Assembly: GCA_045805265.1 (NCBI GenBank)
Contig: JBJMLO010000028.1
Coordinates: forward strand, 447-64,446
Direction of reading: 5' to 3'
Origin: Actinomycetota bacterium
GTDB taxonomy: Bacteria; Actinomycetota; UBA4738; JACQTL01
DNA: 64,000 nucleotides
Shown piece after piece: positions 40,365 to 40,556 of this stretch. Each line of letters opens with the position of its first letter. Positions within the stretch are counted from its first letter, which is position 1. The position numbers and the translations under genes were made by a program. The notes beneath the pieces were generated by a model that was not told where the DNA came from, ran no database searches, and was given only the letters and a program-made list of their open reading frames with translations.

Positions 40365-40392
40365 TTGACTTTCCGGCCCCCCTCCCTATACT
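40365..40392 (+). promoter_or_regulatory. candidate gltB promoter TTGACT-16-TATACT
   Basis: gattgtTTGACTttccggcccccctcccTATACTccgg; the only AT-rich hexamer pair in the 850-nt intergenic region; implies about 157-nt leader. Confidence 0.45.
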
Positions 40393-40556
40393 CCGGCCCC
40401 ACCATGCGCGACAGGAGCAGGAACTCGGGCAACGATTCGTCGGTACGAGCCATCTAAGCGCGGGCGGGGGCCAAGCCCCGTGCCGCGCATCCCAGACCTC
40501 CCGGAAACCGGGGGGTCTCGTCATATCGGGCGTCGGGTAAGGAGGAAGGAGGCGAC

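Follow-up and report, generated by a model that had tools for sequence, protein, structure and literature searches.

The stretch of DNA considered here, 64,000 nucleotides (nt) of contig JBJMLO010000028.1 from a bacterium of the Actinomycetota, is referred to in its entirety as the window. It contains gltB, the gene for the large subunit of glutamate synthase (GOGAT). The leader of this gene begins with a promoter, which is followed almost directly by a short open reading frame (ORF), then by two stable hairpins and by a conserved segment carrying the ribosome-binding site (RBS). The same layout is found in front of the adjacent, divergently oriented genes for branched-chain amino acid (BCAA) synthesis, ilvBNC. 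Taken together, the gltB leader is probably a ribosome-dependent (leader-peptide) attenuator, derived from the ilvBNC attenuator next to it.

Anatomy and conservation of the gltB leader

The components of the leader, all on the + strand of the window, and the gene that follows them are:

40365 to 40392, + strand: sigma-70-type promoter, TTGACT (40365-40370), 16 nt, TATACT (40387-40392)
40393 to 40403, + strand: discriminator and predicted 5′ end, CCGGCCCCACC, 11 nt, without a Shine-Dalgarno sequence
40404 to 40457, + strand: leader peptide ORF, MRDRSRNSGNDSSVRAI, 17 codons plus TAA (ATG at 40404, TAA at 40455-40457)
40443 to 40451, + strand: conserved 3′ codons of the leader ORF, GTA CGA GCC, of which GTA is the candidate sensor codon
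40458 to 40488, + strand: hairpin HP1, 12 bp, whose first base directly follows the stop codon
40494 to 40518, + strand: hairpin HP2, AGACCTCCCGG-aaa-CCGGGGGGTCT, 11 bp, homologue of the ilv terminator hairpin
40519 to 40538, + strand: near-invariant tail of 20 nt, CGTCATATCGGGCGTCGGGT, a degenerate U-tract and then a weak third hairpin (HP3)
40539 to 40559, + strand: RBS of gltB (AAGGAGGAAGGAGG, 40539-40552), CGAC spacer and GTG start (40557)
40557 to 45074, + strand: gltB, the regulated gene, 1505 amino acids (Pfam GATase_2, Glu_syn_central, Glu_synthase and GXGXG)

An earlier note on this DNA, made from the letters alone, had named TTGACT-16-TATACT as the sole convincing promoter of the region. 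This is borne out by a generic scan of 39600-40700, in which the promoter of the gltB leader was the only sigma-70-like site, with 0.0 expected from shuffled sequences. The predicted position of the transcription start site (TSS) is about 40399-40402. With a TSS 6-9 nt past the -10 hexamer, the 5′ untranslated region would be 2-5 nt in length, i.e., the transcript is predicted to be of the “leaderless” type.

Thirteen distinct gltB leaders were compared: that of the window and 12 from related uncultured Actinomycetota. All but one of the 13 bear the promoter. In a scan of one genome per species the leader was present in the two closest relatives only, at loci L001 and L002 (uncultured Actinomycetota, GltB identity 84-85%), and absent from the other 78 gltB loci of that scan. 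Further leaders were obtained from contigs that encode a 67-amino-acid protein (see below), from contigs that encode a small protein of the ilv operon, and from a pattern scan of metagenomes, in which 29 stretches matched and the real leaders were at four loci (three distinct sequences). A protein search with the GltB N-terminus for closer relatives gave matches of at most 62% identity.

The promoter hexamers are kept in 12 of the 13 leaders, with a mean pairwise identity of 0.92 for the -35 and 0.97 for the -10. The spacer between them is 16 nt long in all 12 promoter-bearing leaders, yet only 0.59 identical. In the same 12 leaders the -10 and the ATG are invariably 11 nt apart (identity of this segment 0.92).

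The leader ORF, which the earlier note had correctly placed at 40404-40457 with 17 codons, is open in all 13 leaders and has a length of 17, 18 or 19 codons. The frame is kept and the stop codon abuts HP1 in every one of them, and the ATG is 11 nt past the -10 in 12. Indels within the ORF are multiples of three only; the loops of the hairpins carry indels of 1 nt. There are synonymous changes in the glycine codon at position 3 (GGC, GGG, GGA or GGT), in the alanine codon at position -2 relative to the stop (GCC or GCT) and in the proline codon found at -3 in L107 and L125 (CCG or CCC), and the stop codon alternates between TAA (window) and TAG (relatives). Codons 4-8, in the middle of the ORF, drift (mean pairwise identity 0.55). 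The fixed ATG and stop, the indels in threes, the synonymous variation and the exchange of TAA for TAG point to the leader ORF as a coding unit. Most telling is L129 (2369-2600, - strand), in which the promoter and the ATG of the leader are gone and the hairpins and the end of the ORF are kept. There, an ORF of 36 codons starts at an ATGA overlap with the stop of the 67-amino-acid gene and, with the frame unchanged, ends at the same stop before HP1; this retention of the frame points to a translated small ORF.

The peptides themselves show little conservation: just two codons are shared by all 13 gltB leaders, GUA (valine) at -4 and alanine at -2. The GTA is invariant in 26 of 26 leaders (13 of gltB and 13 of ilv, described below), always four codons before the stop and never replaced by a synonymous valine codon; it makes up 3.6% of valine codons (usage in gltB and ilvB). 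The peptides of the gltB leaders hold one to three BCAA codons, i.e., the GUA plus none to two valine, isoleucine or leucine codons scattered in individual sequences. The codon at -3 is CGA, CCG, CCC, CAG or CTG; a “glutamate-family” rule for this position (arginine, proline, glutamine) was ruled out, as L126 has leucine. Of the codons that had been called rare in the earlier note, GTA is so, but CGA is not (19% of arginine codons); the truly rare arginine codon in the ORF is AGG (1.6%), and the relatives have TAG in place of the TAA. Two other ways of reading this part of the leader were discarded. Read-through of the stop codon into gltB was considered as the ORF and the GTG share a frame in the first eight sequences, and rejected as this frame is broken in L129 and L125; the +2 frame, rich in glutamine and glutamate, was rejected as coding sequence as it has no start codon.

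Both hairpins are more stable than expected by chance. The folding energy of HP1 is -25.9 kcal/mol (z -3.46) and that of HP2 is -20.6 kcal/mol (z -4.36), and in each case none of 200 shuffled sequences was as stable. This applies to HP1 and HP2 alone: the fold of the whole leader does not exceed shuffled sequences in stability (z -1.2), nor does HP3. The linker between HP1 and HP2 is 5 nt in the window, and the two hairpins together span 61 nt in all 12 promoter-bearing leaders. Both are kept in every sequence, whereas their loops vary freely. Across the gltB leaders, 96.7% of the cells of HP1 and HP2 in the alignment are paired; of the 23 pairs, 13 are invariant, and there are three compensatory and six one-sided changes of the G.U type. 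On the opposite strand the G.U pairs would turn into A.C mismatches, which assigns the conserved structure to + strand RNA and not to a palindrome in DNA. The hairpins lie where the earlier note had put them; its 10-bp stem (40495-40517) is the core of HP2. The distance that it gave from this stem to the RBS, 30 nt, needs correction to 20 nt to the RBS block, or 29 nt to the distal GGAGG.

The GTG start is 38 nt past HP2, and the approximately 40 nt that lead up to it are conserved. The first 11 nt of the tail are 0.93 identical and the tail aligns with UUUCGUUUUCCGGG of the ilv leaders; GGAGGCGAC has a mean pairwise identity of 1.0, and GGAGGCGACGTG, the region from the RBS to the start, is identical in 13 of 13 leaders. 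The ORF and the hairpins, whose lack of conservation in relatives would have counted against the earlier note, recur in 12 other distinct sequences. Fixed elements alongside a drifting spacer, mid-ORF and loops are the mark of selection on specific elements, as opposed to common descent in the recent past.

The ilv leader and the neighbourhood of gltB

A covariance model (R1) was built from the gltB leaders alone. It found a second match in the window at 38695-38784 on the - strand (26 bits, E about 5e-4 over 548 kb), and it matched the equivalent ilv sites of L001, L081 and L082 with 30-33 bits. The match belongs to a leader at 38890-38713 (- strand), 1.5 kb from the gltB leader, with the same layout:

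38861 to 38890, - strand: promoter TTGACC-18 nt-TATCAT, the only promoter-like site in 38550-39000
38787 to 38849, - strand: leader peptide ORF, MRTRRDCSSFAPVDVLVLIT, 20 codons (ATG at 38849, 11 nt past the -10; TAG at 38789-38787)
38786 to 38752, - strand: ilv HP1, a hairpin beginning GCGCGG, directly abutted by the TAG
38747 to 38724, - strand: ilv HP2, 10 bp, preceded by a CAGAG linker; terminator-like in the generic scan
38723 to 38713, - strand: U-rich tail, GTTCGCTTTCC (GGGGTCTTTCGTTTTCC in relatives)

The ORF of this leader ends in CTC GTA CTT ATT ACC TAG, i.e., it is rich in BCAA codons and uses the rarest valine, leucine and isoleucine codons of the genome. The genes that follow are a 147-amino-acid ORF, ilvB, ilvN and ilvC and, in relatives, then leuA and leuC. 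The collection of ilv leaders comprises 13 distinct sequences, among them some from distant genomes (L121, L123); the peptides that were read out (8 of the 13 leaders) all end in ...V-L-(L)-I-(T/R). The discriminator, from the -10 to the ATG, is 9-11 nt long in these paralogues. The ilv leader matches no Rfam family. By its anatomy it is a BCAA leader-peptide attenuator, of the kind that has been predicted or demonstrated for actinobacterial ilvB. In Mycobacterium tuberculosis, ilvB1 has a BCAA upstream ORF and a terminator, and GUA has been singled out as a regulatory codon (PMC13236596). Other precedents are the Corynebacterium ilvB-II motif (PMC10272879) and the actinobacterial leaders predicted by Seliverstov in 2005 (PMC1262725).

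The gltB and ilv families are collinear over the whole module, -35 to tail (...CGTAC, 9 nt, TAG, GCGCGG..., a linker of the CAGAG type, ...GGGGTCT...), and a joint model (R2) finds all 26 leaders at E values of 2.5e-8 or less. Besides these two leaders there are no further copies of the module in the 64 kb of the window, as searched with R2 with its filters off and with regular expressions. Nor did a search of 77 other gltB loci, which belong to more distant taxa, find any. In the joint alignment 96.3% of cells are paired, compared with 82.5% for shuffled sequences and about 50% when the partners are slid against each other. Eighteen pairs change on both sides; they stand for few independent events, since the alignment had been fitted to the model and the two families are set apart by most of these changes. 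The earlier note had read this region as a cis-regulatory leader rather than plain spacer, and the conservation of promoter, start, frame, stop, hairpins and the 40 nt to the GTG, together with the homology to a BCAA attenuator, agrees with that reading.

As leaders of the ilv type occur in more distant genomes (L121, L123) than those of the gltB type, the gltB leader is the derived copy. In most relatives, too, gltB and the ilv cluster are divergent neighbours. The copy has changed in several respects. The run V-L-x-L-V-L-I-T has been replaced by hydrophilic residues followed by V-(R/P/Q/L)-A-x, with the GTA alone retained. The stem of HP2 has changed from GCCCUUCGC/GCGAGGGGC to GACCUCCCGG/CCGGGGGGUC, with compensation. 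The U-tract has changed from UCUUUCGUUUU to UCUCGUCAUAU, and is intermediate in the subgroup of L115 (UCUCGUCGUAU) and L126 (UCUUGUCGUAU).

The gene next to the ilv leader on its downstream side is not ilvB; this gene, of about 147 amino acids (38170-38611, - strand), lacks a Pfam domain and has 390 homologues in metagenomes of Actinomycetota. It usually overlaps the start of ilvB; in L123 and L124, the leader and this small gene are present without ilvB.

Two further features lie upstream of the gltB leader:

39910 to 39936, + strand: GlnR-box-like repeat, GTTACacagagTTCACaccgagGAAAC (GTTAC-n6-TTCAC-n6-GAAAC), with a periodicity of 11 bp, upstream of the 67-amino-acid ORF
40000 to 40203, + strand: conserved ORF of 67 amino acids (MAMWDVLVTTHDD...), without a Pfam domain, upstream of the leader

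Thus, the region that had been described in the earlier note as 850 nt of intergenic DNA is not empty. Homologues of the 67-amino-acid ORF are present at every locus that bears the leader, and in this clade they are always upstream of gltB. At L003, which has no leader, the ORF overlaps the start of gltB (GTGA); for this reason the leader module looks to have been inserted between two genes that were formerly coupled. In L081 and L085 the ORF starts at the position of its second ATG (40006). A hairpin, CAATCCcgggcaGGATTG followed by TTTGACTTT, is located at 40346-40363 (+ strand), just ahead of the -35 of the leader promoter, which it overlaps; it was scanned as terminator-like, shows a compensatory change in L082 (CAATCG...CGATTG) and may be the end of transcripts of the 67-amino-acid ORF.

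The GlnR-box-like repeat is conserved in L001, L002, L081, L082, L084, L085 and L115 and is similar in L003; in most relatives it is located in the divergent region between the 67-amino-acid ORF and ilvD. We take it to resemble the consensus of the actinobacterial GlnR box. Nitrogen control of gltB is more plausibly exerted via this site than via the leader. Between the repeat and the ilv leader there is an ORF of 221 amino acids (39037-39702, - strand) with an N-terminus like a signal peptide and no Pfam domain, in a position that is occupied by ilvD in relatives.

The N-terminal region of GltB (...ERDACGTGF) contains the catalytic cysteine. The gene for the small subunit, gltD, is not next after gltB: in the region 45075-47600, an ORF at 45075-45632 has no Pfam match and a gene at 46308-47600 (- strand) encodes ferredoxin-like and adenylate/guanylate cyclase domains. 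GltB may be a single-subunit (ferredoxin-type) GOGAT. Further downstream, an S-adenosylmethionine riboswitch (RF00162; 50448-50550, + strand, 95 bits, E 1e-21) precedes an ORF without a Pfam match (50665-51948).

Proposed mechanism and alternatives

The anatomy of the leader, its conservation, the pairing at the RNA level, the relationship with the ilv leader and the constraints of the coding type lead us to infer the following course of events. Here the TSS, the fact that the ORF is translated, the switching step and likewise the signal are predictions. Transcription would start a few bases before the AUG and, with no Shine-Dalgarno sequence, initiation of translation would be of the leaderless type. 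The ribosome would then translate the frame of 17-19 codons. With the GUA in its A site, it would cover the RNA roughly to the stop codon and leave HP1 intact, whereas a ribosome at the last codons or at the stop would unwind the 5′ arm of HP1. Thus, the speed of translation over the last four codons would decide the state of HP1 while the polymerase makes HP2, and the state of HP1 and HP2 would determine the amounts of RNA polymerase and/or ribosomes that get to gltB. The route of this output could be weak termination at HP2 or the invariant 40 nt that carry the RBS. Partial termination at HP2 is put forward tentatively as the output step; an effect on translation or stability through the invariant tail and the RBS is rather improbable. 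As the leucine, isoleucine and threonine codons of the ilv copy have been replaced and the GUA alone has been kept, the likeliest signal, itself a doubtful one, is the charging of the tRNA-Val that reads GUA, or the general rate of elongation. In the last step of BCAA synthesis the amino group is donated by glutamate, and in Escherichia coli gltBD is under the control of the leucine-responsive regulator Lrp; for these reasons an input to GOGAT that is linked to BCAAs makes sense physiologically.

Several observations weigh against control by a leader peptide. There is a weak excess of changes at third positions of the ORF (over 15 codons, 7, 8 and 10 sites vary). In this GC-rich stretch (the window has a G+C content of about 72%) each of the three frames is open, so that the openness of the ORF is uninformative on its own. 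The peptides of the gltB leaders have no run of regulatory codons, and glutamate and glutamine codons are absent from 11 of the 13; a single GUA would be a thin sensor. The tail of HP2, UCUCGUCAUAU, has 5 U in 11 nt compared with 8 in 11 in the ilv relatives, and it was not called terminator-like in the scan. No antiterminator was found: folds in which a ribosome masks the RNA at the GUA, at later codons or at the stop all form HP2, in the gltB and ilv leaders alike, and in transcripts cut before the 3′ arm of HP2 the 5′ arm is never sequestered before that arm is made, again in both families. Among the candidates tried there was no significant pairing that sequesters the RBS. In addition, regulatory-codon mutants of Streptomyces coelicolor ilvB are reported, in a passage of PMC1262725 that cites the work, to have had no effect. 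With no codon run and no antiterminator found, two textbook features of such elements, the gltB leader is not a plain classical attenuator.

The candidates that were discarded along the way include a 2:3 antiterminator and the 1:3 and 2:4 alternatives, since the masked or truncated folds never displace HP2 in either family. RNAalifold predicted a pairing of the 5′ end (CAUGCGC) with the start of gltB (GCGACGUG), both sides of which are invariant and thus show no covariation. The 3′ end of the leader ORF (GUACGAGCC) can pair with GGCGACGUG at the start of gltB at -12.4 kcal/mol, which is not above background (24% of random 14-mers of the window reach the reference of -11.1 kcal/mol or lower), and L125 (GUACCCGCC) loses the central pair. 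A hairpin of the gltB start region with codons 8-11 is no better than shuffled sequences (z 0.4 to -1.0), and masking of the RBS by an anti-Shine-Dalgarno sequence (CCUCC) in the 5′ arm of HP2 involves 5 bp only and was never favoured in the folds. The suggestion in the earlier note that the leader senses nitrogen, glutamine or asparagine does not fit the peptides, 11 of 13 of which have no glutamine codon and in which asparagine is not conserved, and no riboswitch family matches: with Rfam on 39600-40700 (E up to 10), the only match was one expected by chance, DUF3800-VI on the - strand, with 16.8 bits against a gathering score of 35.

The loss of the BCAA codons, the degraded U-tract and the failure to find either an antiterminator or an RBS switch would also be explained if the copied ilv module were a relic that now serves as a constitutive internal promoter, with hairpins that stabilise the mRNA and block read-through from the 67-amino-acid ORF, and with no sensing of amino acids. 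As relatives without the leader couple this ORF directly to gltB, the insertion would mainly have added a strong promoter. However, a bare promoter with a stabiliser needs no ATG at a fixed distance, no kept frame, no indels in threes, no stop abutting HP1 and no invariant rare GTA, and L129 has the end of the ORF and the hairpins yet lacks the promoter; this explanation is unlikely. The two inverted repeats, GC-rich and less than 130 bp from the promoter, could instead be sites for dimeric transcription factors, i.e., operators in the DNA downstream of the promoter, an idea that can hardly be credited, as the changes in the stems (U.G to U-A, G.U to A-U or G-C) keep the pairing of the + strand RNA but break the dyad symmetry of the DNA, and the loops vary freely.

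A leader that binds a metabolite or a protein in the manner of a riboswitch (e.g., glutamine, glutamate, 2-oxoglutarate or, as a repressor site, a translational repressor), in which the short ORF is incidental, would account for the strong conservation of the unpaired 11-nt 5′ end, the tail and the RBS region (identity 0.92-1.0), and GOGAT genes elsewhere do bear glutamine riboswitches or the gltD motif (PMC8632094). Such a leader is quite improbable here, given two plain hairpins with variable loops, without a junction or a pseudoknot and without a match in Rfam, the use of the same fold by the neighbouring BCAA leader ORF, and the coding-type constraints on the gltB leader ORF. Less probable still is that the conserved [S/T]-V-x-A-x-stop peptide and the near-invariant RNA of 60 nt from HP2 to the RBS reflect a TnaC- or SpeFL-like arrest of the ribosome at or near termination, brought on by glutamine, glutamate, 2-oxoglutarate or the like, or else direct binding of such a ligand. 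If this were true, the ilv scaffold would have been rebuilt as a metabolite-sensing switch for glutamate synthase which no longer reads the charging of tRNA, i.e., as a new sensor of nitrogen or of amino donors. Finally, a strong promoter followed by two stable hairpins could define a gene for a small RNA, about 120 nt long, with its end at HP2 and a function in trans like that of rnTrpL of Sinorhizobium, with gltB transcribed from an upstream promoter; small RNAs derived from attenuators are known (PMC6614838), and a leader transcript of ilvB1 of about 120 nt accumulates in M. tuberculosis (PMC13236596). As HP2 has no good U-tract and the module is always directly 5′ of gltB with an invariant link to the RBS, this is a far-fetched reading, and a role in trans would add to control in cis rather than replace it.

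Significance and comparison with known systems

Nitrogen enters amino acids by way of glutamate synthase, the transcription of which is controlled by factors such as GlnR, AmtR, Lrp and GltC/TnrA. Control by RNA has been described in a few lineages, in the form of the glutamine riboswitch and the gltD motif (PMC8632094). In the literature searched, no description of control of glutamate synthase by a leader peptide was found; an attenuator of this sort on gltB would add one more type to the controls of the enzyme. The pair of leaders is, in addition, a clean natural case of the evolution of an attenuator, in which a promoter, a mini-ORF and hairpins were copied from ilv, the sensor codons rewritten and the terminator softened. 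With the parent and the derived copy 1.5 kb apart, specific and testable predictions follow, for the codons swapped back and for the U-tract restored (TCTCGTCATAT to TCTTTCGTTTT). The gltB leader occurs in a single uncultured clade, and the mechanism given for it is a proposal; a regulatory link between BCAA synthesis and glutamate supply is suggested in a widespread group of uncultured soil Actinomycetota. The models R1 and R2 can be used to seek more members of this “ribulon” in complete genomes.

Of the known RNA elements that control GOGAT, the glutamine riboswitch (glnA RNA) and the gltD motif (PMC8632094) resemble the gltB leader in being 5′ leaders that are in cis to a glutamate synthase gene and have a hairpin near the RBS. 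They occur in other taxa, have no match to it in sequence or structure (Rfam) and differ from it in that the gltB element is built round a mini-ORF, for which translation is predicted. The attenuators of enterobacteria (trp, ilvBN, leu, his) share with it a leader peptide, a default fold of two consecutive hairpins (1:2 and 3:4) and a biosynthetic gene downstream. In contrast to these, the gltB leader has no 2:3 antiterminator (its segments 2 and 3 are both C-rich), no Shine-Dalgarno sequence before its leader peptide and no proper U-tract.

A further comparison is with the leaderless poly-cysteine small ORFs of mycobacteria (Canestrari et al., bioRxiv 10.1101/834739), which attenuate cysteine operons at the translational step. 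They belong to another pathway; the gltB leader has no codon run, and no duplex sequestering its RBS could be shown above background. Both are short 5′ ORFs without a Shine-Dalgarno sequence in an actinobacterium, upstream of a gene for amino-acid metabolism; in both, the position of the ribosome is proposed to remodel the RNA downstream, and neither appears to have a canonical terminator.

There is a close resemblance to the attenuators of actinobacterial ilvB, the ilv leader of the window included. The gltB leader departs from these in controlling gltB, in the loss of the run of leucine, isoleucine and valine codons, in the degraded U-tract and in a gene start that is 38 nt past HP2. It has in common with them a promoter almost directly before a short ORF, a rare GUA near the end of that ORF, GC-rich hairpins of which the second is homologous to a terminator, a length of about 130 nt to the end of HP2 and homology in sequence to the ilv leaders of the same clade (26-33 bits).

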